Shown: positions 3,583 to 56,212 of the stretch, one piece after another
Layout of the letters: the number at the start of each line of letters is the position of its first letter
Numbering within the stretch: position 1 is the stretch's first letter
NCBI GenBank assembly: GCA_963788965.1
Contig: CAWBIK010000007.1
Location: forward strand, 4,147-68,146
Direction of reading: 5' to 3'
DNA: 64,000 nucleotides
DNA from: an uncultured Acidobacteriota bacterium
Lineage (GTDB): Bacteria; Acidobacteriota; Blastocatellia; Pyrinomonadales; Pyrinomonadaceae
Position numbers and translations under genes: made by a program
Notes under the pieces: generated by a model
What the model was told of the DNA's origin: nothing
The model's input: only the letters and a program-made list of their open reading frames with translations
Database searches by the model: none

Positions 3583-3780
3583 GGCAATTTGGGCAATGTG
3601 GACTGCCAACTGACGATTTTTCTTTAGCCACAGACCAATTTCCTTTATCAACAGACCAACTTGCGTTATCCACTGACGAATTTGCTTTAGCCACACGCCA
3701 ATTTCCTTTATCAATTCACGATCTTCCTTTATCAATTCGTGAATTTCCTTTATCAATTCGTCTGTTTCCTTTAGCCATAC
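3583..3780. repeat. Tandem array A: degenerate 21-bp repeat, about 8 clear units, AT-rich
   Basis: Units phased exactly 21 bp from 3604 to 3771: tgccaactgacgatttttctt / tagccacagaccaatttcctt / tatcaacagaccaacttgcgt / tatccactgacgaatttgctt / tagccacacgccaatttcctt / tatcaattcacgatcttcctt / tatcaattcgtgaatttcctt / tatcaattcgtctgtttcctt. Confidence 0.85.
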
Positions 3781-8644: not shown

Positions 8645-8733
8645 ATTGCGGCCTGCGGATTTCGGATTGCGGATTTGATCAACAACTAGCGGTTGTCTTT
8701 TCAATCCGCATTCCGAAATCTGACATCCGCAAT
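8645..8733. repeat. Heptamer-tiled palindromic element, GCGGATT/AATCCGC family
   Basis: Left arm attgcgg cctgcgg atttcgg attgcgg. Right arm caatccg cattccg aaatctg acatccg. AT-rich centre gatcaacaactagcggttgtctttt. The right arm encodes the MurD C-terminal tail. Confidence 0.8.
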
Positions 8734-21129: not shown

Positions 21130-21390
21130 ATTGAACTTGATTCAGCCGCGACCGAATCAACTTTTATCGCAACTGAACTTAGTTCGGTCGTGACTGAACT
21201 AACTTTTATCGCAACTAAACTAACTTCGGTTGCGACCGAACTAAGTTCAGTTGCGACTAAACTAACTTCAGTTGCGACTGAATTAACTTTCATTGCAACT
21301 GAATCAAGTTTGGTTACGACTGAATTAAGTTCAGTTACAACTGAATCAAGTTCAGTTACAACTAAACTTAGTTCAGTTAGGCTTGCATTA
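21130..21390. repeat. Tandem array B: degenerate 21-bp repeat, about 12 units
   Basis: Units phased at 21130+21k: ttcagccgcgattgaacttga / ttcagccgcgaccgaatcaac / ... / ttcagttgcgactaaactaac / ttcagttgcgactgaattaac / ... / ttcagttacaactaaacttag. Confidence 0.85.
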
Positions 21391-21401: not shown

Positions 21402-21860
21402 TTAAAAACCTCGCGAACTGCACATGGCGCAGTGGTCGCAGGGTTTGCCGCCCGGTTCGACGGTGCAGACCTTCTCGCGCTCGAAGAAATCAACCAACTC
21501 GGAGACGGCCTCGTCGATGCCGAAGCGTTCCTGACTTGGATGTGGCACGACGGGAATGTAAGTGCTGCTGGTCCAATGTTGTTGCGGCGGCTGCGTTGTG
21601 CGCGCAGCATTTGTGGTCGTATGACTCGGCTGCGCTGACATGCCCACGGCGCTGTCTTCGTGCCCGCAGTCGTCTGTGTGCGCGACGTGCGATTCGATCT
21701 GGGCCAGACGTTGCTGCACTTCGCCGAGACTGTGCCGCAGGGCCGCCAGTTCGCGCCCGACATCCGGCGCGTGCTCGGCCGGCGCAGGCTCAGGCGTGCG
21801 TGCGAGGCGGGCGGCGATGCGCTCGGCGAGCGCGCGTGCTTGATCTTGCTCTGTGCTCAT
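21402..21860 (-). CDS. BMC-locus small protein: amphipathic N-terminal helix, Pro-rich linker, Cys-rich C-terminus
   Basis: 152-aa ORF. Its ATG overlaps the stop of the upstream BMC-P gene (ATGA). N-terminus ARALAERIAARLAR followed by TPEPAPAEHAP. C-terminus CTVEPGGKPCDHCAMC. Confidence 0.55.
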   Translation of the reverse strand: MSTEQDQARALAERIAARLARTPEPAPAEHAPDVGRELAALRHSLGEVQQRLAQIESHVAHTDDCGHEDSAVGMSAQPSHTTTNAARTTQPPQQHWTSSTYIPVVPHPSQERFGIDEAVSELVDFFEREKVCTVEPGGKPCDHCAMCSSRGF

Positions 21861-22159
21861 CGCGTCTCCACCTTGTTTATCTCGTCAGGCAGTAGATCGA
21901 TGCGGTCCACCACGCCGACAATCGCCGAGTCTATAGCTGCGCCCGGTTCGCCCGTCGCCGCCGTCGAAGCGCCCCAACCTTCTTGCACGATCAAGACCAC
22001 ATCGCCCGCGCCCGCGTCCACCGAATCGAGCGCGATTAAGGTCGCGCCTGTCTCCGCGCCGTCCAGCGTCATGGGCTGGCAGAGCATGACGCGTGCGCCC
22101 GCGTAACGCTCGTTCTTCTGCGTCGCCACGACGTTGCCTAAGACGCGCGCGAGAATCAC
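21857..22159 (-). CDS. BMC vertex pentamer protein (EutN/CcmL family), paralog 1
   Basis: Translation from GTG 22159 gives VILARVLGNVVATQKNERYAGARVMLCQPM...VDAGAGDVVLIVQEG...AIVGVVDRI. The GTG overlaps the TGA of the upstream paralog (GTGA). Confidence 0.85.
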   Translation of the reverse strand: MILARVLGNVVATQKNERYAGARVMLCQPMTLDGAETGATLIALDSVDAGAGDVVLIVQEGWGASTAATGEPGAAIDSAIVGVVDRIDLLPDEINKVETR

Positions 22160-22443
22160 TTGCGTCTGCCCCCGTTCGTGACGTGCGCGTCGGAATCGAC
22201 GATGCCGACGATGGTGCAGTCGGTCGGCGTGTCTTCGCGCTTGAACGGGAAGCTCGCCTCTTTGCCGCGACACCAGATAACCAACTCGCCCACGCCCGCG
22301 CCGATGGCATCGAGCGCAACCAGCGGCGACCCTTGCGGCCGCAACTGCGCGTCGAGCGATTGGATCACCAACAGCTTACGCCCTTCGAGTGAATCGTTCT
22401 TCACCGTCGCCACGACCGTCCCGATGACCCGCGCAAGTTGCAT
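22156..22443 (-). CDS. BMC vertex pentamer protein (EutN/CcmL family), paralog 2
   Basis: MQLARVIGTVVATVKNDSLEGRKLLVIQSL...LDAIGAGVGELVIW...TIVGIVDS is the EutN/CcmL fold signature. Confidence 0.9.
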   Translation of the reverse strand: MQLARVIGTVVATVKNDSLEGRKLLVIQSLDAQLRPQGSPLVALDAIGAGVGELVIWCRGKEASFPFKREDTPTDCTIVGIVDSDAHVTNGGRRK

Positions 22444-22463
22444 GAGAAGCTGACCGCTGATCG

Positions 22464-22733
22464 TTAATCGCTCAAATCCACCGTGTCGATCACGCCGACG
22501 ATGGCGGCATCGACGGGCGCATCCTTCATGCCTTCGGCGAGACGCGCCGACGAGCCGGCGACGACCAGCACGCGCTCGTGAAAGCCCGCGCCGACCGTGT
22601 CCACGGCGACGACATAACCGCTCGCGTCCGTGCCGTCCAAATTCATAGGCCGCACGATCAAGAGCTTCTTGCCCCTGAGCCGTTCGTCCTTCTGCGTCGA
22701 GACGACCGTGCCTAGTATGCGCGCAACAATCAT
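22464..22733 (-). CDS. BMC vertex pentamer protein (EutN/CcmL family), paralog 3
   Basis: MIVARILGTVVSTQKDERLRGKKLLIVRPM...VDTVGAGFHERVLVVAGSSAR...AIVGVIDTV closely resembles EutN. Confidence 0.9.
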   Translation of the reverse strand: MIVARILGTVVSTQKDERLRGKKLLIVRPMNLDGTDASGYVVAVDTVGAGFHERVLVVAGSSARLAEGMKDAPVDAAIVGVIDTVDLSD

Positions 22734-22740
22734 AACAAGC

Positions 22741-22818
22741 CGTAAAGCGTGAATCGTAAATCGTGAATAGATAGAACTGTTGTTATCTATTCACGATTTA
22801 CGATTCACGATTCACGAT
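22741..22818. repeat. Heptamer-tiled palindromic element, CGTGAAT/ATTCACG family
   Basis: gtgaatcgtaaatcgtgaatag pairs perfectly (22 nt) with ctattcacgatttacgattcac. The centre is atagaactgttgttat. Lies inside the BMC operon between the BMC-H and BMC-P genes. Confidence 0.9.
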
Positions 22819-22820
22819 CC

Positions 22821-23103
22821 CTAGTCGTTGCCGATGGGCAGGGCTTCGTCCACGCTGCCGTGCGGGCGCGGGATGACGTGAACGCTGACCAGTTCGCCGA
22901 CGCGGCGTGCGGCGGCTGCGCCCGCGTCCGTCGCGGCCTTAACGGCCGCCACGTCGCCGCGCACGATGGCGGTCACAAAGCCTGCGCCGATCTTCTCGTA
23001 GCCGATCGAGCGTCACGTTCGCGGCCTTGACCATCGCGTCCGCCGCTTCGATCATCGCTACCAGCCCCTTAGTCTCGACCATGCCGAGTGCTTCCTGTGG
23101 CAT
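22821..23103 (-). CDS. BMC shell hexamer protein (BMC-H, PduA/CcmK-like); 1-nt insertion frameshift as sequenced
   Basis: Reverse translation from ATG 23103 gives [32 protein letters not shown]. After removing one base near 23008 it continues [48 protein letters not shown]. The span is 283 nt, which is 282+1. Missed by the ORF track because both halves are under 60 aa. Confidence 0.85.
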
Positions 23104-23202
23104 TCGCTTAAGCTCCTGTCAATTCGTGAATCCGCAAAGCTTGTTGTGTGCCGTCATCATGCGTGAATCGCACGCGATCCGCAAGCGGCGCTCGCTGTTC
23201 TG

Positions 23203-24024
23203 TTAAGACTTCAATTGCGTCGCCTGCGCCAGTAGTTCGATCAACTCTTCGCGCGTCAGGCTGATCTTCGCCGCGCCGTTCGTCGCCGCGTTTGTTTGCG
23301 CCGACGCAACGCTTGCGCGCTCGCCGGTCGGGCACGTGATCCGCGTCTCGTGTAGATAACCGCAAGCCTGACAGCGCGCGCGCTCGTCCAAGTAGCCTGC
23401 GGCTTCGCGCACTTCGATCAGCTTCTCAATCGCGTCGGGCGGCAGATTGCGCGGCCCGCCGATGGCGCGCGCAAGGATCGCGATCTTCGCCGTGTGTTCC
23501 AACGTTTCGAGCCGGTCGAATGCTTGCCACACGTCTGCGCCGTAAGCGACCGCGCCGTGGTTCGCCATCAGCAGCGCGTTGTGATGCTTGACGAGCGGGC
23601 GCATTGCTGTGGTCAACTCGTCGGTCGAAGGCGTGCCGTAGTCAGCGAGCGGCACACAGCCCAACGTTAAAATAACTTCGGACAAGATCGGTTGGTCAAT
23701 CGCCAGCCCCGCGACGGCGAACGCCGAGCCATGCGGCGGGTGCGCGTGACAGACAGCTTTGATTTCGGGCCGCTCGCGGTAGATGAGCAAGTGCATCGCC
23801 AATTCGCTCGATGCACGACGATCATTCAACGCCTTACCGTCAAGGTCTGTGAGGGCGAGGCCGTCTTCGGTCATGCGCCCTTTGCACGTCTGCGTCGGCG
23901 TCGCCAGAATGCGCCCGTCGTCAAGCCGCACGCTCACGTTGCCGTCCGACGAGACGACGTAACTGCGCTCATACATCAACTGGCCGACGCGCACAATCTC
24001 GCGCCGCGCTGTTTGTTCATCCAT
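23203..24024 (-). CDS. Class II aldolase (fuculose/rhamnulose-phosphate aldolase-like) with about 58-aa C-terminal extension
   Basis: SSDGNVSVRL...SSELAMHLLIY...AVCHAHPPHG...MANHGAVAYG are class II aldolase/adducin motifs. The extra C-terminus is CQACGYLHETRITCP...LTREELIELLAQATQLKS. Confidence 0.9.
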   Translation of the reverse strand: MDEQTARREIVRVGQLMYERSYVVSSDGNVSVRLDDGRILATPTQTCKGRMTEDGLALTDLDGKALNDRRASSELAMHLLIYRERPEIKAVCHAHPPHGSAFAVAGLAIDQPILSEVILTLGCVPLADYGTPSTDELTTAMRPLVKHHNALLMANHGAVAYGADVWQAFDRLETLEHTAKIAILARAIGGPRNLPPDAIEKLIEVREAAGYLDERARCQACGYLHETRITCPTGERASVASAQTNAATNGAAKISLTREELIELLAQATQLKS

Positions 24025-24030
24025 CTGCTG

Positions 24031-24471
24031 TTAATCCTCGAAGCCCGCGAGGTCGTGTGCGCTGTCGAACTGAAACTCGACCAACTGCTCGGCGTCGGTG
24101 AACTGCCCGCCGACGATAGCCTGCCGAAACCTGATATGCCGCGCTGCTTTCATCGCTTGCTCGGTCAGCCCTGCGGGCAACGTTTTAACAGGCTTGATGT
24201 CAGATACCGTGCCATCCCAGTTGAGCGTCATGCTTAGCTCGACCGTGCCCGTCACGCCGTTACGGATCGCCTCGTCAGTGCGCGGCAAGCGCGGCTGGTA
24301 CACGATCAGCACCGGCGCATCGCGCATACCCCGCGCCGGGTGCGAGTCTGCCACGTACACACGCGGCCCGCGCGTGCCGTACCGCATCACGACCTTAACC
24401 AGTGCGGCGGCGCACGTGCTGACCATCAGCGTGAGCGTCAGCAACAGTATTTGTTTGAGCAACCATTTCAT
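24031..24471 (-). CDS. TonB C-terminal-domain-like protein with signal anchor
   Basis: 146-aa ORF. N-terminal hydrophobic helix. GVTGTVELSMTLNWDGTVSDIKPVKTLPAGLTEQAMKAARHIRFRQA resembles TonB_C. Ends 7 nt upstream of the aldolase ATG. Confidence 0.55.
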   Translation of the reverse strand: MKWLLKQILLLTLTLMVSTCAAALVKVVMRYGTRGPRVYVADSHPARGMRDAPVLIVYQPRLPRTDEAIRNGVTGTVELSMTLNWDGTVSDIKPVKTLPAGLTEQAMKAARHIRFRQAIVGGQFTDAEQLVEFQFDSAHDLAGFED

Positions 24472-24534
24472 AGCGTTGACCTCCGCCGTCGCAAGTGTCG
24501 CCGCGTATAAACGAACCGAGCAAAATGTGCGCGC

Positions 24535-25251
24535 TTACTTGCCGGACAGTTCACGCTCCTCGCGTTGCGCGATCTCTTCGTAGGGCAGCAGGCTGCGCGG
24601 GTTGGTGATGCACACGACCTGCGGGCGCGCGAGGAAGTAAGATAACGATTCAAGTGAGATCGTCAAATCCACCGTCTTCACCTTGACGCCGAGCCGCGCG
24701 TGCAAACGCACGGGCGCGAAATTCAAGACCGCACGCACGCCGGCCGACATCACTTGATTCAACACGCGTTGCGCCACGCGCGCCGGCACGGCCACGACCG
24801 CCACTTCGATCTGCTCGTCGCGCACCACGCGCGCGATCCGCCGCACGTCATGCACGGGAATCTCCGCGCGCCCCACCTTGCGCCCGATCTTCTCGCGGTC
24901 GTTATCAAAGAGTGCGACGACCGCGAAGCTCGACGCGCTGAAGCCGTTATAGTTGGCGAGCGCCGTGCCCAAGTTCCCTGCGCCGATGATGCCGACGCGG
25001 CGCGGCACGTCTAGCCCCAGAATCTCCGTGATGTGGCGGCGCAGTTCGTCCACCGAATAGCCGACGCCGCGCGTGCCGAACTCGCCGAAGTAGGCGAGGT
25101 CTTTTCTGATCTGCGCCGAGTTGAGATTGAACTGATCCGCCAGCGCGCGCGACGAGATCGTCTTGATGCCTGCGTCCGCCAGCAGGTTCAGGCAGCGCAG
25201 ATACACGCTTAGCCGGTTCGTCGTCAGTTCCGAAATCTTCTCCGCCTTCAT
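24535..25251 (-). CDS. rex: Redox-sensing transcriptional repressor Rex
   Basis: RLSVYLRCL...SSRALADQFNLNSAQIRKDLAYFGEFGTRGVGY...IIGAGNLGTALANY are canonical Rex wHTH and Rossmann motifs. Start taken at MKAEKISE. Confidence 0.9.
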   Translation of the reverse strand: MKAEKISELTTNRLSVYLRCLNLLADAGIKTISSRALADQFNLNSAQIRKDLAYFGEFGTRGVGYSVDELRRHITEILGLDVPRRVGIIGAGNLGTALANYNGFSASSFAVVALFDNDREKIGRKVGRAEIPVHDVRRIARVVRDEQIEVAVVAVPARVAQRVLNQVMSAGVRAVLNFAPVRLHARLGVKVKTVDLTISLESLSYFLARPQVVCITNPRSLLPYEEIAQREERELSGK

Positions 25252-25452
25252 CGCTTGCTTCTGTCCTAGCGTGGTCAGTATAGCGCGCGCGCCGCCCCGC
25301 GAAAAGACAAGGGCTGCGGCGCACACGGCTACAAGCTTTGAAGCCGCTACAACTCCCGCGCGTTGCCGACGAGTCGCGCATCAACTAAAATCCCTCGTGC
25401 ATAACCGAGACGCTCCCGAAATCTCTTCTCGTGCCATGAAACATAACGACCA

Positions 25453-26084: not shown

Positions 26085-26169
26085 GAAATGATGCAGGCGG
26101 AATGATGACTGATGAATAACGAATAGCTTGTCTGTCATGCATCAGTCATCATTCCGCCTGCATCATTTT
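26085..26169. repeat. Heptamer-tiled palindromic element, ATGATG-type arms
   Basis: aaatgatgcaggcggaatgatgactgatg (29 nt) has a perfect reverse complement on the right arm. The centre is aataacgaatagcttgtctgtcat. Lies between ruvA and ruvB. Confidence 0.85.
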
Positions 26170-27342: not shown

Positions 27343-28272
27343 ATGAGACAGTGGCTCGCATCTTGGACGCGGCAACATTTCGGCGTGCGCAACCGCGCGC
27401 CGTGGACGTCGATCATCAGTCACACCGTCCACCAGTTTCACGAAAACGATCTGTTCACGCCCGCCGCCGCGATGAGCTACTTCGGGCTGTTGACACTTTT
27501 TCCCACCCTGCTCGTGCTGTTGGCCTTGAGCAACAACTTCGAGGTCGGCAAAGAGATGCTCAACCGCGCGGTGGACGTATATCCCGGCTCGCGCGAATTT
27601 TTGCGCTCGACCATTCGCTCGTTAGAGGATGTCGGCCCGACCGTCATCTTCACTTGCATCGGCGTCACGTTATGGGCCGGCTCGTGGGTCTTCAGCGTGG
27701 TCGAGCGCGCGATCAATCGCCTGTGGGGCACGAAGCCACGCACGTTCCTGCACGGGCGCGGGTTGACGTTGGCGATGATCGGCGGCATCGGCGTACTCTT
27801 GATCGCCTCCGTGCTGTTGACCTACATGCTCGTCGCCTTGCGCGAGATGACATCGCGTTTGACGCCGCGCCAGATCGAGCGCGTAGCGATGCTGTCGCTC
27901 GCGGGCAACGCGTTCTGGCAAGTCGTCTTCACGTTAGTCAGCATCACGGTCACGATCACTCTGTTCACTATCGTCTATCGGCTGATGCCGAACGGGCGCG
28001 TGACCTTGCGCGATTCGATTCCGGGCGCGGTCGTCGCCGGGCTGCTGTGGGAGATCGCCAAATACATCTTCGCGTCGAGCCTGCACTACTTTCATTACGA
28101 TCAGATTTACGGCTCGGTCGGCGCGGTCGTCGCCGTCCTCACATGGAGCTACGTCTCAAGCCTGATTCTACTGTTCGGCGCACAAATCTCGGTCGTCTTC
28201 CACCAAGAGACATCGGGCGCGCACGAAGCTGTTCATACGTCGCAAATGCCTGTCGCGCCGCAAGGCGATTAA
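27343..28272 (+). CDS. YihY/BrkB-family membrane protein
   Basis: 309-aa polytopic ORF. AAMSYFGLLTLFPTLLVL and YGSVGAVVAVLTWSYVSSLILLFGAQI are typical of the YihY (former RNase BN) family. Confidence 0.8.
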   Translation: MRQWLASWTRQHFGVRNRAPWTSIISHTVHQFHENDLFTPAAAMSYFGLLTLFPTLLVLLALSNNFEVGKEMLNRAVDVYPGSREFLRSTIRSLEDVGPTVIFTCIGVTLWAGSWVFSVVERAINRLWGTKPRTFLHGRGLTLAMIGGIGVLLIASVLLTYMLVALREMTSRLTPRQIERVAMLSLAGNAFWQVVFTLVSITVTITLFTIVYRLMPNGRVTLRDSIPGAVVAGLLWEIAKYIFASSLHYFHYDQIYGSVGAVVAVLTWSYVSSLILLFGAQISVVFHQETSGAHEAVHTSQMPVAPQGD

Positions 28273-28339
28273 CCATAAAGACACGAAGCCACGAAAGAAA
28301 CCTTTGCTGCTTCTTTTGTGTCTTCGTGTCTTTGTGGTT
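28271..28339. repeat. Heptamer-tiled palindromic element, CACGAAG/CTTCGTG family
   Basis: aaccataaagacacgaagccacgaaag ... ttgtgtcttcgtgtctttgtggtt. Starts inside the yihY stop codon. Confidence 0.85.
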
Positions 28340-30062: not shown

Positions 30063-30131
30063 TAACCACCAAGCCACGAAGGCACGAAAGATCAATCAGC
30101 TATCTTTCGTGCCTTCGTGGCTTGGTGGTTA
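30063..30131. repeat. Heptamer-tiled palindromic element, CACGAAG/CTTCGTG family (perfect 30-bp arms)
   Basis: taaccaccaagccacgaaggcacgaaagat - caatcagct - atctttcgtgccttcgtggcttggtggtta. The arms are exact reverse complements. The right arm encodes the last 14 codons and the stop of the 30092..31486 gene. Confidence 0.95.
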
Positions 30132-31539: not shown

Positions 31540-32124
<585 letters not shown>

Positions 32125-32198
32125 AGCTCAAAGGCAGTGACAAAAGTGACGAGCGCCGGGTGACAAGTCAGCACGAGTTGTTAACCTGTCGCGCGGCA

Positions 32199-32681
32199 CT
32201 AAGTAAAGAGACTATCGATGTCGTCGTCGGTGATGCCCGCCAGCAGGGGGTTGTCGCGGGCGCTTTGTTCGGACTCGCGCTCGATCTCTTCAAAGATGGT
32301 GGCCAATTCGCGCCCCGCCTGCTTAACGCGCAGTTTGACCAGTCCTAGGCTCGAACGGTCGTCGAAGACGACCACCAGCAGTGTCCGCCCGATCAGGCAG
32401 ATGTGGATCGACTCGCGCTCGCCCTCGTGCGACAGCGTCGGGAACTCTTTCTCGCCGATGAGCAGGGCCATGCCGCCCGTCGCCGCGACGTTGCCCGCCG
32501 CCAGAGACGCCAGACTCGTCGTGTCGAGGCCGCCGACCTCGCCCTGCACGGCGATCTCCTGCCCGTTCTTGTCCACGAGAAAGACGACGCGCGAGAACGA
32601 ATCGAGCCGTAACTTTGACAGTACGGAAATGATCCGCCCGTACTGCTGTTCGCGCATAATGATAGGTGTGTCCATCATCAA
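32199..32681 (-). CDS. mglB: MglB, Roadblock/LC7-fold GAP of MglA
   Basis: VVFLVDKNGQEIAVQGEVGGLDTTSLASLAAGNVAATGGMALLIGEKEFPTLSHEG...LVVVFDDRSSLGLVKLRVKQA...DDDIDSLF closely matches MglB. Confidence 0.9.
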   Translation of the reverse strand: MMMDTPIIMREQQYGRIISVLSKLRLDSFSRVVFLVDKNGQEIAVQGEVGGLDTTSLASLAAGNVAATGGMALLIGEKEFPTLSHEGERESIHICLIGRTLLVVVFDDRSSLGLVKLRVKQAGRELATIFEEIERESEQSARDNPLLAGITDDDIDSLFT

Positions 32682-35166: not shown

Positions 35167-36651
35167 ATGGAGACACACGCACCAACGAACGCGCACGACG
35201 CGCAGCCGACGCAACCCGCCGCGCCGCTCGACGTGCTCATCCTCGCCGCCGGCCTCGGCACGCGCATGCGCTCGCGCACCGCCAAAGTCCTGCACCAACT
35301 CGGCGGTCGCCCGCTCATCGCACACGTCTGCCACACGGCCGCCGCGCTCGTCCGCGAAGGGCGCACCGTCTATGTCGTCGTCGGGCATCAAGCGGAAGAA
35401 GTGCAAGCGTCGGTTGAAGCGGAACTCGGCGCGCACGGTGCGGTCTTCATCACGCAGACCGAGCAACGCGGCACGGGCGACGCGGTGCTGGCCGCGCGCG
35501 CGGCGCTCGCCGACGCCAACTCTACCCTGCTTGTGCTATCGGGCGACGTGCCGCTCGTCCGCGCCGAAACGCTCGGCGCACTGGTCCAACAGCATCGCAC
35601 GCATCGCGGGCACGGTGCGGCGTGTACGTTGCTCAGCGTCCGGCTTGAAGACCCGACCGGCTACGGCCGCGTCGTGCGCGACTCCGAAGGGCGCTTCGAG
35701 CGCATCGTCGAGCAGAGGGATGCGACGCCCGAAGAACGACAACTCAACGAGATCAACGCGGGCATCTATTGCTTCGAGACGCGCGCACTCTTCTCCGCCC
35801 TTGATCGCGTGCAGCCCGCGAACGCGCAGGGCGAGTATTACTTAACAGACGTGCCCGGCATCTTGCGCGCGGACGGCGCGGACGTGTCCGTCTTCCTGCA
35901 CGCGGACGCACGCGAAGTCAGCGGCGTCAACACGCGTGTCGAGTTGGCCGACTTCGAGCGCCTGTTGCGCGCGCGCACGTTGCGCCGTCTGATGCTCGAC
36001 AGCGGCGTGACCGTGATCGATCCGGCGCATACATACGTCAGCGCCGAAGCGCAGATCGGGCGCGACACCATCTTGCACCCGGACGTACACATCGAAGGGC
36101 GCACAATCATCGGCGAAGGCTGCGAGATACGCTCCGGCACGCGCATCACCAACGCGCGCATCGGCAGCGGCGTTGTGATCAAGGACCATTGCGTCATCGC
36201 CGACTCGGAGATCGCGGATCACTGCACGCTGGGGCCGTTCGCGCACCTGCGCATGGGCGCACAGATGGAAGAAGCCGCCGCCGTGGGCAACTTCGTCGAG
36301 ATGAAGAAGTCGCGGCTTGGGCGCAAAGCAAAGTCGATGCACTTGACTTACTTGGGCGACGCGACCATCGGCGACAACACGAACATCGGCGCGGGCACGG
36401 TGACGTGCAACTACGACGGGCAACGCAAACACCCGACCGTCATTGAAGACAACGTGAAGATCGGTTCGGACACGATGCTGGTCGCGCCCGTGCGCGTCGG
36501 CGCGCGCGCCGTGACCGCCGCCGGTTCAGTCGTCACAAAAGATGTCCCGCCCGACACACTCGTCGCGGGCGTGCCCGCCGTCGTCAAAAAGCACCTGCGC
36601 AACGACGAGCAAGACGCTGAAGAAACAACAGCAGTGATGAAGGAACAGTAA
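35167..36651 (+). CDS. glmU: Bifunctional GlcNAc-1-P uridyltransferase / GlcN-1-P acetyltransferase
   Basis: 494-aa ORF. LILAAGLGTRMRS...QTEQRGTGDAV, plus a C-terminal left-handed beta-helix hexapeptide region. Confidence 0.95.
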   Translation: METHAPTNAHDAQPTQPAAPLDVLILAAGLGTRMRSRTAKVLHQLGGRPLIAHVCHTAAALVREGRTVYVVVGHQAEEVQASVEAELGAHGAVFITQTEQRGTGDAVLAARAALADANSTLLVLSGDVPLVRAETLGALVQQHRTHRGHGAACTLLSVRLEDPTGYGRVVRDSEGRFERIVEQRDATPEERQLNEINAGIYCFETRALFSALDRVQPANAQGEYYLTDVPGILRADGADVSVFLHADAREVSGVNTRVELADFERLLRARTLRRLMLDSGVTVIDPAHTYVSAEAQIGRDTILHPDVHIEGRTIIGEGCEIRSGTRITNARIGSGVVIKDHCVIADSEIADHCTLGPFAHLRMGAQMEEAAAVGNFVEMKKSRLGRKAKSMHLTYLGDATIGDNTNIGAGTVTCNYDGQRKHPTVIEDNVKIGSDTMLVAPVRVGARAVTAAGSVVTKDVPPDTLVAGVPAVVKKHLRNDEQDAEETTAVMKEQ

Positions 36652-36716
36652 CGAGTGACGAGTGACGAGTTAAGGCCAAGTCTTTAACTTGTCACTCGTC
36701 ACTCGTTACTCGTCAC
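36648..36716. repeat. Heptamer-tiled palindromic element, GTGACGA/TCGTCAC family
   Basis: gtaacgagtgacgagtgacgag - ttaaggccaagtctttaacttg - tcactcgtcactcgttactcgtcac. Overlaps the glmU stop codon. Confidence 0.9.
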
Positions 36717-36741
36717 TGCTTTCTCGAAAGGAAAGCAACAC

Positions 36742-38602
<1,861 letters not shown>

Positions 38603-41776: not shown

Positions 41777-44755
41777 ATGAAAAGAGTTTACGTTTCCTCA
41801 ACCTTCCTTGATTTGCAAGAGTGCCGCGCAAAAGTTAACGGCGCGCTGCGCCGCATGGGGCTGGAAGATGTGGCGATGGAGCATTACGTCGCCGACCACA
41901 GGCCGGCGGTTGATAAGTGTCTGGCAGATGTGGCCGCTTGCGATCTCTACGTGGGCGTCTTCGCGTGGCGACACGGCTTCGTGCCGAAGAAGGACAACCG
42001 CAAGAAGATGTCCATTACTGAGATGGAATATCGCCACGCGGTCAAGACCGGCAAGCCGCGTTTGATCTTTTTGTTGGATGAAGAGGCATCGTGGCCCGTC
42101 AAGCTCATCGACGACGATAAGAAACGCATCAAGCAACTGCGCGCCGAGTTGGCGAGGGATAACACCGTCTCTTTTTTCAAGTCGGCTGCGGAATTGGGCG
42201 AAGTGTTCGCGCCCGCAGTTCACAACTGGCTACGGGAGCATGGCCACCTCACGCCGGTCGCACGCCCCGCCGAGTTGGACTTGACGAACTACTACGCCGC
42301 TTTGCTCAAACGTTACCAGCGCATCGATCTGAACGCGCTGACGCCGCCGGAGAAGGAAGAGTATCTACAGTTGCAACTGCGGCAGGTGTTCGTCGCGCAG
42401 AGCGTGCGCGAGAATCCGCCGCCGGTCGAACTGCCGAAAGAGTTGTGGGACAAGCTGCGGCGCGAGGGCGAGTTGCATCATGAAGACTTGCCTGCGGGTG
42501 TTGCGCCCGATGATGTGTTGCGCGCGCGCACAGGCTACTACGAGAAGACGCCGCAGCCCGTGCTGGACGTGCTGACAGACGCGCGCCACAAGTACAGCAT
42601 CATTCTGGGCGATCCGGGCGCGGGCAAGTCCACGCTGGCGCGCTACGTCCTGCTGTCGTTGATTAGCGAAGAGGGCGACGAACGATTGCGCCGCGCCTTT
42701 GCCGGCCATGTGCCGCTGTTAATCGAACTGCGGAGCTACGCCGGTCTGTACGCGGACGGCAAGTGCGAGAGCTTCACGGAATTTCTCGTCACGCTGGGCA
42801 AGAGTGAAGGTTGGGGCATCGAACGCGAGGCGCTTGAGCATTATCTTAAACAGGACGGGCGCGCACTCGTCATCTTCGACGGGCTGGACGAAATCTTCGA
42901 CCCCGATCAACGCGAACAGATCGCGCACCGCATCGTCGGCTTCACCAACGAGTACCCGCAGGCGCGTCTCTTCGTCACCAGCCGCGTCATCGGCTACCGG
43001 CGCAAGATACTTGCCGACGCAGGCTTCGCACACTTCACGCTGCAAGATTTAGACGAGCCGCAGGTCGCAGAGTTCGTTACACGCTGGTACGACCTTGCCT
43101 TGAGCGACCAACCCGAAGAGGCCGCCGCGCGCCGCGAACGCATCCTGCGCGCGTTCAAAGACTCCGCTTCCATTCGCCAACTCGCGGGCAATCCGATGCT
43201 CTTGACCATCATGGCCATCATCGGCAAGCACAGAGAACTCCCGCGCGAGCGTTGGAAACTCTACGAGCACGCCGCCAGCGTCCTTGTCGAGCATTGGGAC
43301 GTAGGCAAGCACCTGAAAGACCACAGCATCGACGCCCCTTTCATCGAAGAAGACGACAAGAAAGAACTGCTGCGCCGGCTCGCCTTCAAGATGCAGGCGG
43401 GCGCAGGCGGGTTAGCGGGCAACTACATCCACCGCGACGAATTGCAGACCGAGTTCGAGGGCTATCTAACAGAACGTTATGAACTGACACCGGCAGCGGC
43501 GAAGCCCGTCGCCCGCGCGATGCTCGAACAGTTCCGCGAGCGCAACTTCATCCTCTCGCTCTACGGCGCGAACATCTACGGCTTCGTCCACCGCGCCTTT
43601 CTCGAATACTTCTGCGCCACGGCGTTCACACACAAGTTCGAGAAGACGCGCGCGATAACGCCCGACGAATTGAAGCGCGACGTTTACGGCGCACACTGGC
43701 GCGAGCGTAGCTGGCACGAAGTCCTGCGCCTGATCTGCGGCATCCTTGACGAGAAGTTCGCTGGCGAGATCATTGACTTCCTTGTGACGGAAATTAAGCC
43801 GCCAACGGATGGCTGGACTGATGAACAGCCGCCGTGGAACATAGCTCTGGCCATACAGTGCCTCGGCGAAGTCCGAAACCTCGGCACGGTCGCAGACCCC
43901 GCGCGGCGACTGTTACAGGCTGTATGCACATTCCTTGAAACTGAGCTGAAGAGCGGCAACTTCAAGCTTTATGGCTTTCTACATGATCCAATCGTCACCT
44001 CAATCGAAACAATCGGCCCGAACTGGCCGCACAGAGCCGTGTTAGCAGAGTGGCTGAAAGGATTACCTTCCATAGATTTCTCTTATTATTATGCTGAACC
44101 ATTCGGGCGGATTGTCGGCTCAGTTGGTGCGGGGCTGAAGGAAATACATCAGAGCATCTTGTCTTTTGCAGCCCACGATGATGTGAGATACCGGACACTA
44201 GCACTATTCGCATTAGCCATAGGGTGGCATAACAACACCGCGACCCTGCCGCTGTTGCGCGCCCGCGCCGTCGAGGACGCACACCAATATGTTCGCAGCA
44301 CGGCGCTCAATGCGTTGGCACAGCACTACCGCGCGGACGCCGCGACCCTGCCGCTGTTGCGCGCCCGCGCCGTCGAGGACGCACACCAATATGTTCGCAG
44401 CACGGCGCTCGAAGCGTTGGCGCAGCACTACCGCGCGGACGCCGCGACCCTGCCGCTGTTGCAGGCGCGCGCCGTCGAAGATGCAGACCAATATGTTCGC
44501 AGCACGGCGCTCAATGCGTTGGCACAGCACTACCGCGCGGACGCCGCGACCCTGCCGCTGTTGCGCGCCCGCGCCGTCGAGGACGCACACCAATATGTTC
44601 GCAGCACGGCGCTCAATGCGTTGGCGCAGCACTACCGCGCGGACGCCGCGACCCTGCCGCTGTTGCGCGCCCGTGCGAAGGATGACGAATCAGAGTTGGT
44701 GAAAATGACAGCCCGAAGACGTGCGGAAGAGTTGAGTCGCGCCGTGGTGTCGTAG
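41777..44755 (+). CDS. STAND NTPase: DUF4062 (TIR-like) N-terminus, NACHT ATPase, C-terminal HEAT repeats
   Basis: Intact 992-aa ORF. N-terminus VYVSSTFLDLQECR...CDLYVGVFAWRHGF...SITEMEYRHAVKTGKPRLIFLL matches the DUF4062 pattern. Walker A ILGDPGAGKSTLA. Walker B ALVIFDGLDEI. C-terminus has PBS-lyase-type HEAT repeats (DAHQYVRSTALNALAQHY). Confidence 0.9.
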   Translation: MKRVYVSSTFLDLQECRAKVNGALRRMGLEDVAMEHYVADHRPAVDKCLADVAACDLYVGVFAWRHGFVPKKDNRKKMSITEMEYRHAVKTGKPRLIFLLDEEASWPVKLIDDDKKRIKQLRAELARDNTVSFFKSAAELGEVFAPAVHNWLREHGHLTPVARPAELDLTNYYAALLKRYQRIDLNALTPPEKEEYLQLQLRQVFVAQSVRENPPPVELPKELWDKLRREGELHHEDLPAGVAPDDVLRARTGYYEKTPQPVLDVLTDARHKYSIILGDPGAGKSTLARYVLLSLISEEGDERLRRAFAGHVPLLIELRSYAGLYADGKCESFTEFLVTLGKSEGWGIEREALEHYLKQDGRALVIFDGLDEIFDPDQREQIAHRIVGFTNEYPQARLFVTSRVIGYRRKILADAGFAHFTLQDLDEPQVAEFVTRWYDLALSDQPEEAAARRERILRAFKDSASIRQLAGNPMLLTIMAIIGKHRELPRERWKLYEHAASVLVEHWDVGKHLKDHSIDAPFIEEDDKKELLRRLAFKMQAGAGGLAGNYIHRDELQTEFEGYLTERYELTPAAAKPVARAMLEQFRERNFILSLYGANIYGFVHRAFLEYFCATAFTHKFEKTRAITPDELKRDVYGAHWRERSWHEVLRLICGILDEKFAGEIIDFLVTEIKPPTDGWTDEQPPWNIALAIQCLGEVRNLGTVADPARRLLQAVCTFLETELKSGNFKLYGFLHDPIVTSIETIGPNWPHRAVLAEWLKGLPSIDFSYYYAEPFGRIVGSVGAGLKEIHQSILSFAAHDDVRYRTLALFALAIGWHNNTATLPLLRARAVEDAHQYVRSTALNALAQHYRADAATLPLLRARAVEDAHQYVRSTALEALAQHYRADAATLPLLQARAVEDADQYVRSTALNALAQHYRADAATLPLLRARAVEDAHQYVRSTALNALAQHYRADAATLPLLRARAKDDESELVKMTARRRAEELSRAVVS
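44240..44680 (+). repeat. Near-identical 102-bp (34-aa) tandem repeats inside the NACHT gene, 4 full copies plus 1 partial
   Basis: gcgaccctgccgctgttgcgcgcccgcgccgtcgaggacgcacaccaatatgttcgcagcacggcgctcaatgcgttggcacagcactaccgcgcggacgcc recurs at 44240, 44342, 44444 and 44546 with only a few substitutions. Confidence 0.85.
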
Positions 44756-44779: not shown

Positions 44780-45250
44780 GGGCGGGGCGGGGTGGGAGAT
44801 GCGGCGGGCGGGGGGGTGAAGTGAGGCGGTGGGGGTGAAAATCGTCGTGCGGGCGTGAAAGTCGAGCAGTGCGGGTGTTGAGGCGAGGCGGGGCGCGTGT
44901 GAAGTCTGCCAGTGCGGGCGTGAGGCGGGTGGTGCGGGGTGTAAATCGAGCCAGTGCGGGCGTAAACCGTGCCGGTGCGGGGAAAAGTGAGCCAGTGCGG
45001 GCGTGAAATTTAGCCGGTGCGGGGTTGATCTGAGCCAGTGCGGCGAAAAATCGTGCGGTGCGGGAAAAAGTTGTGCGGTGCGGGCGTGGAGTCGTAGCGG
45101 GGCGAGCGAAAATCTCGGCCGGGCGGGTCGAAATCGTGCCGTGCGGGGTGTAAACGTGGCCGTGCGGGTTGAAAACGGGGCGGTGCGGGCCGCAATGGCG
45201 GCGGGGCGGCGTTGAGTGGCGATGTGCGGGCGTTGTGGGTCGGCGCGCAG
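44780..45250. repeat. Tandem array C: degenerate 20-22-bp repeat with GTGCGGG core, about 20 units
   Basis: GTGCGGG-like cores at 44847, 44869, 44912, 44932, 44954, 44975, 44995, 45017, 45038, 45058, 45078, 45141, 45162, 45183 and 45224. Degenerate units lie between them. Typical unit: gtgcgggcgtgaaatttagccg. Confidence 0.8.
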
Positions 45251-45256
45251 GGCGGC

Positions 45257-45335
45257 GGATTGTAGATTGCGGAATGCGGAATGCGGATTAAGCAGACAGT
45301 TGTTCTTATAACCCGAAATCCCCGCTCCGCAATCG
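45257..45335. repeat. Heptamer-tiled palindromic element, GCGGATT/AATCCGC family (right arm degenerate)
   Basis: gattgta gattgcg gaatgcg gaatgcg gatt - aagcagacagttgttcttata - acccgaaatccccgctccgcaatcg. Confidence 0.6.
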
Positions 45336-46139: not shown

Positions 46140-46230
46140 TTGCGGAATGCGGAGTGCCAATTTCGGAATGCGGATTGCGGATTGTAAAGACAAGTGTTCC
46201 TTAATCCGCAATCCGAAATCCGAAATTGGC
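46138..46230. repeat. Heptamer-tiled palindromic element, GCGGATT/AATCCGC family
   Basis: gattgcggaatgcggagtgccaatttcggaatgcggattgcggatt - gtaaagacaagtgttcctt - aatccgcaatccgaaatccgaaattggc. Confidence 0.8.
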
Positions 46231-52990: not shown

Positions 52991-54752
52991 ATGCCGCGAT
53001 CTCAGTCACACATAACGCGCTTGCTTCGTTCTGCGCTTAGCACGTGCGCGCTCTTGCTGTGTGCCTTGTGCGCACAAGCACAGACGGGCGGCTCGATCAC
53101 CGGGCGCGTCATAGACGACGCGGGGCAGCCCATCGTTAACGCACAAGTTTTTATCTCGACCCCGCCACGCAGCGCGCGGACGATGAGCGATCCGGAAGGC
53201 AAGTTCAGCTTCGACAATCTGGCGCGCGGCGCTTATGCCGTCAGTGCGAACGCGCCCGGCTATTTCGACCCGACGACGCTTGAGTCCGAGCGCAACGAGC
53301 GCACTTACTACCGGCCCGGCGACAGCGTCACGATCAGACTGAGCAAAGGCGGCGTCATCGCCGGACGCGTGCGCGACGCGGGCGGCGAGCCAATTATCGC
53401 CGTGCGCGTCCAAGCCATCCGCGTGCGCGCGCTCGACAAACAACAGCCCAACAGCTACACGTCGCCGAACGGGCGCGTCTATGAACGCACGACCGATGAT
53501 CGCGGCGTCTATCGCTTCTACGGTCTGCTGCCCGGCGTCTATCTTGTCGCCGCAGGCGGCAACGGCCTCAACAGCTTCGGTCCGCGCCCGTCCCCTTATG
53601 ACGACGACGTGCAGACCTTCTATCCCGCGACCACACGCGACGGCGCAAGCGAACTGGTCCTACACGAAGGCCAAGAACTGCCCGACGTTGACATACGTTA
53701 TCGCGGCGAGCCGGGCCACGCCATCAGCGGCCGGGTCGAGAACGCGGGCAATACACCCGTCGCACTCACAATCATCCCGGCCGGTTTCAACTACGTGGCG
53801 AGCAATCGCTTTCTATCTGACCGCGCGAATAGCAACTTCTTCATCTTCGAGGGTCTGGCCGACGGCGAGTACGATCTCGTCGCCGAGCAATACACAACCG
53901 GCGCGACATCTGCGCGCACAGCGGCCGCGAGTCAACGCGTCAGCGTGCGCGGCGCGGACCTGACCGGCCTCAAGCTCACACTCGCGCCGCTCGCCGCCGT
54001 CACGGGGCGCGTCGTGCTTGAAGCCGCGCCACAGCCCGCGCCGTGGAAAGAGCAATGTCAAAGCAAGCTCGACGCCACGATGGGCGAGACGCTCATCAAC
54101 GCGCGCCGCGAACCTGAGGCGCGCACCACTAACCCGCACACCGGCGGCGTGCGTCTGACTTGGCGCTGCGCCCGACGACAAAGGCGAGTTTGCCTTGCGC
54201 GGTCTAACAAGCGGTCGCTTCCGTTTCAGCGTGCGCCCGCCCGGCCCCGACTGGTACGTGCGCGCCGCCATGCTTGCTCCCACGCCCGCACCCGGCAGCA
54301 GGCGTGCGCCCACCACGCCCACGCGCGCCGCCGACACGAACCCGCTCGTTGATGGACTGACGCTCGCCCCCGGCGCGCAGGTCAACGATCTGACTATCAC
54401 ACTCACACCGGGCGCGGCCGAACTAGGCGGCCACGTCACGACCGCGAGCGCAGGCGCAACGCTGCCCGCGCTGCAAGTCTTCCTCGTCCCCGTCGAGCGC
54501 GAGCGCGCCGACGAAGTACTGCGCTACGCCGTCACACGCGCCCGCATCGACGCCACGTTTGCTTTCACACAACTCGCGCCCGGCCGCTATCACCTACTGG
54601 CCGAGCGCACGCCCGACGGCGAGGCTGTGCCGCCAACCTTCGACGCGCCGATGCGTGCCCGCCTGCGCCGCGCCGCCGAGACGCAAAAGCACCTAGTCGA
54701 GTTGAAGCCCTGTCAACGCGTTGACGACTTCACATTCAACTTCATACCGTGA
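52991..54752 (+). CDS. Secreted CarboxypepD_reg-like domain protein; one frameshift as sequenced
   Basis: Signal peptide, then GSITGRVIDDAGQPIVNAQV and GVIAGRVRDAGGEPIIAVRV modules. The frames join at about 54150-54168 (APDDKGEFALRGLTSGRFRF). Confidence 0.7.
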
Positions 54753-54755
54753 ACG

Positions 54756-54828
54756 CAGAATGATGAATGATGAATGACAAACAAGCTATTTGCTATTCAT
54801 CATTCATCATTCTTCGTTCATCATTTGC
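54756..54828. repeat. Heptamer-tiled palindromic element, ATGAATG/CATTCAT family
   Basis: agaatgatgaatgatgaatgac - aaacaagctatttgct - attcatcattcatcattct (19-nt perfect match between arms). Lies between convergent genes. Confidence 0.85.
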
Positions 54829-56056: not shown

Positions 56057-56080
56057 AGCATCTATTTACCATGAAAAGGG

Positions 56081-56161
56081 CGCGAATCGTGAATCTTAAA
56101 TCGTAAATCGATAAGAACTGGTCTTGATCTATTCACGATTTAAGATTCACGGTTCACGATC
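56081..56161. repeat. Heptamer-tiled palindromic element, CGTGAAT/ATTCACG family
   Basis: cgcgaat cgtgaat cttaaat cgtaaat cg - ataagaactggtcttgatct - attcacg atttaag attcacg gttcacg atc. Confidence 0.85.
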
Positions 56162-56212
56162 TTTTCGTCCGCGCTTTCCGCCCCGCGCGACGTGTGCTTA
56201 AATGTTCCGTGG

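Follow-up and report, generated by a model that had tools for sequence, protein, structure and literature searches.

The ACI type of bacterial microcompartment (BMC) was defined in the catalogue of Sutter et al. 2021 (Nat Commun 12:3809; PMC8217296) from 125 loci, all of them from Acidobacteria, which are abundant in soil, and mainly from subdivisions 4 and 6. As described there (PMC8217296), ACI loci carry a PF00596 aldolase that ends in an encapsulation peptide (EP), a hydroxyacid dehydrogenase, a basal BMC-H (hexamer) gene, an adjacent triplet of BMC-P (pentamer) genes, a small protein whose N-terminus bears an EP and whose C-terminal domain is rich in Cys, and a protein of unknown fold with three conserved His. 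The aldehyde dehydrogenase (AldDh) is placed "consistently" on a satellite locus in the main text and in "most" genomes elsewhere, and a metagenome-assembled genome (MAG) of the Blastocatellia, AA13, is labelled ACI (main) in the BMC-P tree of the catalogue (PMC8217296). No functional study of the ACI type turned up in the literature we searched. Here we describe a gene cluster at positions 21402–25251 of a 64,000-nucleotide stretch of contig CAWBIK010000007.1 (assembly GCA_963788965.1; this whole stretch is henceforth referred to as the window) which is probably a main ACI-type microcompartment locus of a member of the Pyrinomonadaceae (subdivision 4 of the Acidobacteriota).

The first gene of the cluster is rex (24535–25251), for the redox-sensing (NADH/NAD+) transcriptional repressor (Pfam PF06971, Put_DNA-bind_N, and PF02629, CoA_binding). 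It is followed by a small TonB_C-like protein, membrane-anchored at its N-terminus (24031–24471; PF03544, E 7.6e-9), and by the signature enzyme, a 273-aa member of the class II aldolase family (23203–24024; PF00596, Aldolase_II, E 4e-46, residues 8–182). The shell genes come next, a BMC-H hexamer gene (22821–23103; PF00936) and three pentamer genes matching PF03319 (EutN_CcmL), namely BMC-P1 (22464–22733, 89 aa, E 2.8e-30), BMC-P2 (22156–22443, 95 aa, E 8.3e-31) and BMC-P3 (21857–22159, 100 aa, E 5e-21), the last with a GTG start set by orthologue alignment. A 152-aa Cys-rich protein (21402–21860), which has no significant Pfam match and was characterised by family alignments and an AlphaFold2 model, closes the cluster. 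The open reading frame (ORF) listing, the reverse-strand sequence and the Pfam matches place all these genes co-directionally on the minus strand. Only 6 nt separate the stop of the TonB_C-like gene from the aldolase ATG, BMC-P2 and BMC-P3 overlap by 4 nt (GTGA, the P2 stop and the P3 GTG start), and so do BMC-P3 and the 152-aa gene (ATGA, the P3 stop and the next ATG). An earlier note, made from the sequence alone, had recognised in this order, with its short or overlapping junctions, the genes of a microcompartment: an aldolase, a single BMC-H, three BMC-P and a Cys-rich protein bearing an encapsulation peptide. The present analysis bears this out, including the three pentamer calls; the hexamer call holds as regards the PF00936 match, but the gene is not intact and the note had overlooked a frameshift in it (see below).

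To place the operon among its relatives, we scanned one genome per GTDB species and found at least 499, the best 80 of which were used; all 80 are MAGs of Pyrinomonadaceae, Blastocatellia or Acidobacteriota. The identical operon, in the same synteny, was present in these 80 GTDB loci and in the loci L001, L002 and L096, and the sister MAGs gp4 AA16, AA19 and AA20, which are among the loci compared, have the same operon. Every locus that was long enough displayed the order rex, a variable small gene, aldolase, BMC-H, P1, P2, P3 and the Cys-rich protein, and wherever the flanks were examined the operon occupied one chromosomal site, between ruvAB/queA and lemA/TPM/zip/mraZ. Such conservation at a single site suggests that the operon is part of the core gene set of the Pyrinomonadaceae, passed on vertically, and not an oddity of the present genome. 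The locus, for which an unusually reduced compartment was one of two readings in the earlier note, is ordinary for its lineage: a compact Pyrinomonadaceae form, standard in 80 or more loci, of the known but functionally uncharacterised ACI type. In 24 loci there is extra DNA between the aldolase and BMC-H genes, with ORFs that are lipoprotein-like or without known identity. A hydroxyacid dehydrogenase was considered for this extra DNA and rejected, the one ORF scanned (416 aa, on the opposite strand) having no Pfam match. In two loci of a sister Blastocatellia lineage, the operon of which is otherwise identical, a 337–340-aa protein with CarboxypepD_reg and TPR domains lies between BMC-P1 and BMC-P2 (L086 8296–9309 and L088 7902–8924), and L088 additionally has an inserted DoxX protein.

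The Pfam scan of the window covered 59 ORFs, from about 1 to 59 kb, which is all but some small ones that lie mostly past ~59.3 kb. Among these 59 ORFs there was no AldDh, phosphotransacylase (PTAC, PduL-type), acetate kinase, alcohol dehydrogenase or 2-hydroxyacid dehydrogenase. In 82 related loci we examined 10 kb on either side, using codon-bias-filtered ORFs of at least 220 aa and 20 candidate clusters of dehydrogenase-like size, and again no AldDh, PTAC, acetate kinase or alcohol/hydroxyacid dehydrogenase was found in the clustered, scanned ORFs. The missing AldDh, PTAC and acetate kinase had already been remarked upon when the locus was first read, and the scanned ORFs of the window agree with this; as for AldDh, its absence from them is consistent with a satellite location. 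The accompanying proposal of a satellite shell locus is not exact, this being the main shell and signature-enzyme locus with its partner enzymes reported elsewhere, and the locus looks minimal because those partners, reported elsewhere in the genome, are outside the window.

One could also take the absence at face value and see here a self-sufficient minimal compartment without any AldDh, with the aldolase-family enzyme and the 152-aa protein (a four-Cys protein, as shown below) as its only cargo, which in Pyrinomonadaceae would be a redox or carbon-overflow device under Rex control and not a classical metabolosome. The operon is indeed compact and translationally coupled, there is no AldDh, PTAC, kinase or dehydrogenase within 10 kb in the 82 loci or in the scanned window ORFs, and the wording of the catalogue, which has a satellite AldDh in "most" ACI genomes, does not extend to all of them (PMC8217296). 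However, its main text has the ACI AldDh consistently on a satellite locus (PMC8217296), a shell around an aldehyde-releasing enzyme would lose its usual point if nothing consumed the aldehyde, and an absence from 20 kb is uninformative for a multi-Mb genome, all of which makes this explanation improbable in our view.

As deposited, the BMC-H gene is broken. Positions 1–30 of PF00936 are matched in an ORF at 22939–23103 and positions 39–75 in another frame, in an ORF at 22821–22976, and the alignment with the orthologous loci L001 and L002 revealed a single inserted base at 23006, outside any homopolymer. The repaired gene encodes 93 aa with the KAAN and PRPH motifs, is 95–100% identical to its orthologues and scores 144 bits against the EutM model. 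The break is unique to the present assembly, BMC-H being in a single frame in all the related loci that contain it (76/76), and a truncated 54-aa BMC-H product from the same contig (68,232 nt) is found in a public protein collection, so the error sits in the deposited record. If the frameshift were genuine, the locus would be an inactive, decaying copy that no longer builds a shell; the position of the insertion, not in a homopolymer, and its presence in the deposited assembly speak for this. Yet further frameshifts relative to close orthologues occur within the same 64 kb, in ftsI (~14596), lemA (~20595), ruvA (~25570) and uvrD (~58565, the UvrD_C domain being divided between two overlapping ORFs). 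Some of these genes are essential or have housekeeping functions. The BMC-H break is thus likely to stem from an assembly error, and the simplest reading of the pattern is an indel-prone assembly. Moreover, the two BMC-H halves each keep 93–97% identity and the rest of the operon is intact, with 74–90% identity to the nearest orthologues in L001, making decay of the locus highly improbable. Indel errors break real genes in this contig and have to be reckoned with whenever conclusions on single genes are drawn from it. The glmS gene of the window (36742–38031, 429 aa, one SIS domain) also appears truncated.

The aldolase-family enzyme has thousands of homologues at 82–90% identity, the named ones from Pyrinomonadaceae and Acidobacteriota MAGs; in Pyrinomonadaceae MAGs the identity is 80–91%. 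Its C-terminus consists of a conserved ARCQxCGYLHETxxxC knuckle (CxxC..H..C), a linker and a terminal GKIsLTReELiELL helix. An alignment of 83 orthologues showed that the helix, which is KISLTREELIELLAQATQL in the present protein (23212–23268, minus strand), is conserved throughout and that the preceding linker varies in both length and composition. We infer that this EP-like terminal helix acts as an encapsulation peptide. As to the reaction, the best PDB matches were 6voq and 6vop, and the SSE, HxH and NHG motifs, which we take to be the metal and catalytic residues of FucA, are present and conserved in the alignment with 6voq. The best NCBIfam match, though, was OtnC, 3-oxo-tetronate 4-phosphate decarboxylase, with 147 bits against an equivalog cut-off of 250; FucA models gave ~105 bits and, like the RhaD equivalog models, were far below their cut-offs. 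Given that the OtnC decarboxylase model outscores those of FucA and that all of them remain below cut-off, the role in fucose or rhamnose metabolism suggested in the earlier note is unproven.

2-Hydroxyacid dehydrogenases are a class of enzymes acting on acid sugars. Other ACI loci have one, and the catalogue terms the ACI aldolase "quite distinct" (PMC8217296). Together with the higher score of the 3-oxo-tetronate 4-phosphate decarboxylase model (147 bits vs 105 for FucA) and the closest PDB relatives (6voq/6vop, not FucA), this would fit a signature enzyme that is an OtnC-like decarboxylase or lyase of a phosphorylated four-carbon acid sugar, and hence a compartment devoted to the catabolism of acid sugars and not of deoxy-hexoses. 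We regard this as unlikely, since the enzyme falls far short of the equivalog cut-off, the ORFs scanned nearby in the window and the 82 loci include no kinase, isomerase or dehydrogenase of such a pathway, and the products, dihydroxyacetone phosphate (DHAP) and CO2, would give the reported AldDh no aldehyde to work on.

The three BMC-P paralogues are ~38–41% identical to each other and 72–94% to their own orthologues (for BMC-P1, ~40% to P2 and P3 and 80–94% to its own orthologues), from which pairwise identities, and not from the clade trees or hidden Markov models (HMMs) of the catalogue, we judged them to be three distinct lines. The Cys-rich protein that follows them has 2,918 homologues, those with names coming from Pyrinomonadaceae, Acidobacteriota or Blastocatellia. 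The family is built from a conserved N-terminal EP-like helix, a second helix, a variable linker and a C-terminal domain of ~55 aa, a layout shared by members of only 77–110 aa. In the AlphaFold2 model of the 152-aa protein (mean pLDDT 66.5), helices span residues 2–20 and 34–62, residues 63–114 are unstructured and of low confidence, and the Cys domain is likewise a low-confidence region. Four Cys (C132, C141, C144 and C147) and D142 are invariant in the family, and the domain ends in CxVEPGGKPCDHCxMCSSRGF; the protein probably binds a metal or an Fe-S cluster.

Among 1.84 billion representative proteins searched, the Cys domain turned up in only 161 representative clusters. It sits at the C-terminus of small proteins, of 31–257 aa in all but one of the 150 representative matches listed, the exception being a weak, partial match to a repeat protein (E 5.9e-5). 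We had considered that it might be the "~50-aa domain" with which the ACI AldDh ends, and rejected this because the domain is never fused to AldDh and occurs in small proteins only. In every context recovered its gene was directly 3' of BMC-P genes, and of the 22 metagenomic loci with 5 kb or more of sequence, 21 had a module of P2-like, P3-like and Cys-protein genes that stood alone, i.e. without aldolase or BMC-H on the contig stretch fetched, up to ~9 kb away where the contig allowed. For this reason the Cys protein seems to be tied to the P2 and P3 pentamer paralogues. The stand-alone module belongs to a lineage of metagenome contigs (L101–L138) with a GC content of ~57% (e.g. L104 7073–10171, L110 7003–10171 and L130 5986–10186) and, in the loci scanned, adjoins upstream genes for a peroxiredoxin and a GAF-GAF-SpoIIE phosphatase. 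No AldDh was found near the Cys-protein homologues in the metagenomes, only GAF-SpoIIE phosphatase, peroxiredoxin, restriction-modification and lysine-biosynthesis genes.

By the standard of curated models the product of the first gene is a bona fide Rex protein, with 255.7 bits for the NCBIfam Rex subfamily (cut-off 126) and 242.7 bits for the equivalog NF003993 (cut-off 217). Its adjacency to the microcompartment genes, pointed out in the earlier note, is real and conserved: rex lies upstream on the same strand in all the related loci that extend far enough 5' to show it (75/75), in some of them only 12–42 nt from the aldolase start, and one more distant lineage is without it. No Rex-linked microcompartment type turned up in the literature searched, and rex is mentioned neither in the text and supplements of Sutter et al. 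2021 nor in the HMM table (PMC8217296). Alignment of 22 loci, along with k-mer enrichment, disclosed only two conserved blocks 5' of rex, the hexamer TATACT ~25 nt from the rex ATG (25277–25282, minus strand), a putative -10 element, and, further upstream, GTCTTTyCGCGG. The TonB_C-like protein between rex and the aldolase evolves fast and differs or is absent in some lineages; most loci have a homologue of it, with the conserved anchor motif LLKRxLPFxLTL, 5' of the aldolase, and it is missing where rex abuts the aldolase.

A further feature of the operon lies in the 87-nt spacer between BMC-H and BMC-P1, where a heptad-repeat hairpin (22741–22816) lies between the BMC-H stop and the BMC-P1 start. 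Its 33-nt arms, made up of ATCGTGA/ATCGTAA heptads, are 94% complementary, its minimum free energy is -46.8 kcal/mol (z = -10.9), and only 4 nt separate its end from the P1 start, with no Shine-Dalgarno sequence visible. A hairpin is found in this spacer in 48 related loci (z < -3 in 46 of them) and is missing from L001 and L002. The heptad sequences differ between lineages, so it is the structure of the hairpin that is conserved and not its sequence. Plausibly, the hairpin lowers the expression of the pentamers relative to that of the hexamer. The TCGTGAA heptads, one base off TTGTGAA, were also considered as Rex half-sites, a possibility we rejected because they are mostly direct repeats or at 22-nt spacing, their sequence varies with the lineage, and similar hairpins follow many unrelated genes.

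Near-perfect intergenic hairpins of this kind are scattered over the window, at 8645–8733, 26086–26168, 28271–28339, 30063–30131, 36630–36724, 45265–45334, 46156–46230, 54750–54820 and 56073–56166. Their arms are 3–5 tandem heptamers, different at each site (GCGGATT, CACGAAG, AGTGACG, GAATGAT, ATCGTGA and others), and related genomes have the same architecture, yet with other heptamers. They recall the heptameric STRR repeats of cyanobacteria and may be the terminator- or REP-like elements of this lineage. Intergenic DNA of the window also holds tandem arrays of 21-nt units, at 3607–3773, 21132–21378 and 44931–45189. The second of these, with ~10 copies of the unit ACTGAACTAACTTCAGTTGCG, which contains an internal palindrome, fills the gap from the end of the BMC operon to the convergent lemA gene, where L001 has a FecR/DUF6600 gene. 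Elsewhere in the window, a 992-aa STAND-type protein (41777–44755; DUF4062, NACHT and HEAT repeats) is encoded by a gene containing a 102-nt repeat (44238–44673, 4.3 copies, 94% identity), and an Arf/Ras-like small GTPase adjoins a Roadblock/LC7 protein (31540–32681) as an MglA/MglB-like pair, in a synteny kept in L001.

With the locus read as a main ACI locus, its parts could work together as follows. BMC-H would tile the facets of the shell and the three BMC-P paralogues cap its vertices, the encapsulation peptides drawing the aldolase-family enzyme and the four-Cys protein into the lumen. There the enzyme would split a phosphorylated sugar or acid-sugar into DHAP and a reactive aldehyde, which would then be oxidised by an EP-bearing AldDh, the enzyme that the catalogue places on a satellite locus in the ACI type. 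Rex, encoded by the first gene, would hold the operon off until NADH/NAD+ rises, and the stable hairpin and the missing Shine-Dalgarno sequence before P1 would keep pentamer output far below that of the hexamer. A bolder proposal is that the Blastocatellia ACI organelle is Rex-governed and AldDh-independent, the coupled module of P2, P3 and the four-Cys protein building a metal or Fe-S complex at the vertex. We consider this quite improbable; if true, the extra BMC-P paralogues would have a role in redox or electron transfer rather than a purely capping one.

The locus adds no new kind of system; what goes beyond the text of the catalogue is the adjacency of rex, an aldolase nearer to OtnC than to FucA and a hairpin after BMC-H in most loci. 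For the ACI type this provides four leads. The invariable linkage of rex in Pyrinomonadaceae suggests that the operon is induced when NADH is in excess or oxygen is low. The signature enzyme is more like a decarboxylase of acid-sugar phosphates than like FucA, two particular BMC-P paralogues are the constant companions of the Cys-domain protein, and the hairpin within the operon probably sets the ratio of hexamer to pentamer.

Several points weigh against this reading of the locus and its regulation. The best model match of the signature enzyme is a decarboxylase and not an aldolase. Two components of ACI loci did not turn up, the PF00389/PF02826 hydroxyacid dehydrogenase, which was not found in the scanned window ORFs or in the 82 loci, and the three-His protein, which was not recognised in the present operon or in those same loci (the TonB_C-like protein, the only other protein of the operon, has no three conserved His in its alignment). 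The assignment was made from the description of the ACI type in the catalogue and not with its classification HMMs (HMMaldol_5_aci2, P_*_aci), and the satellite AldDh is likewise known from the catalogue, the present data being 64 kb of the genome. Regarding regulation, the Rex boxes suggested in the earlier note (TTGTGAA-N6-TTCACAA) are absent from the window, no TTGTGAA-N6/N4-TTCACAA site with up to three mismatches was found near the operon, and 5' of rex in 73 loci the distribution of best matches to the Rex operator equalled that of the control, with no enrichment. No operator having been found, it is gene adjacency that argues for control by Rex.

In Firmicutes, rex is found beside fermentative operons, e.g. 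upstream of crt-bcd-etf-hbd in Clostridium acetobutylicum. The present locus resembles these in that rex directly precedes, in the same orientation, a metabolic operon that is presumably needed when NADH accumulates, and differs from them in that their TTGTGAA-N6-TTCACAA operators are recognisable whereas none is detectable here. With the PVM and PVM-like microcompartments of Planctomycetes, Verrucomicrobia and gut bacteria, with which the earlier note had linked the locus, it shares the BMC-P triplet and a signature enzyme of the class II aldolase family. However, those loci hold AldDh, PTAC, acetate kinase and lactaldehyde reductase, none of which was found in the present locus, and they occur in other phyla than the Acidobacteriota, and the catalogue has the ACI aldolase closer to the HO and MIC3 aldolases (PMC8217296); the locus fits the ACI type instead. 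Within that type it is set apart by a Cys protein of 152 aa, with a long linker and four invariant Cys, compared to ~80 aa, and by the rex and TonB_C-like genes at the head of the operon, neither of which is in the catalogue text or HMM table. What it has in common with ACI is its provenance from the Acidobacteria, a PF00596 aldolase with a C-terminal EP, the BMC-P triplet, a basal BMC-H that has the KAAN and PRPH motifs in its repaired form, a small Cys-rich protein with an N-terminal EP, and a main locus that does without AldDh.

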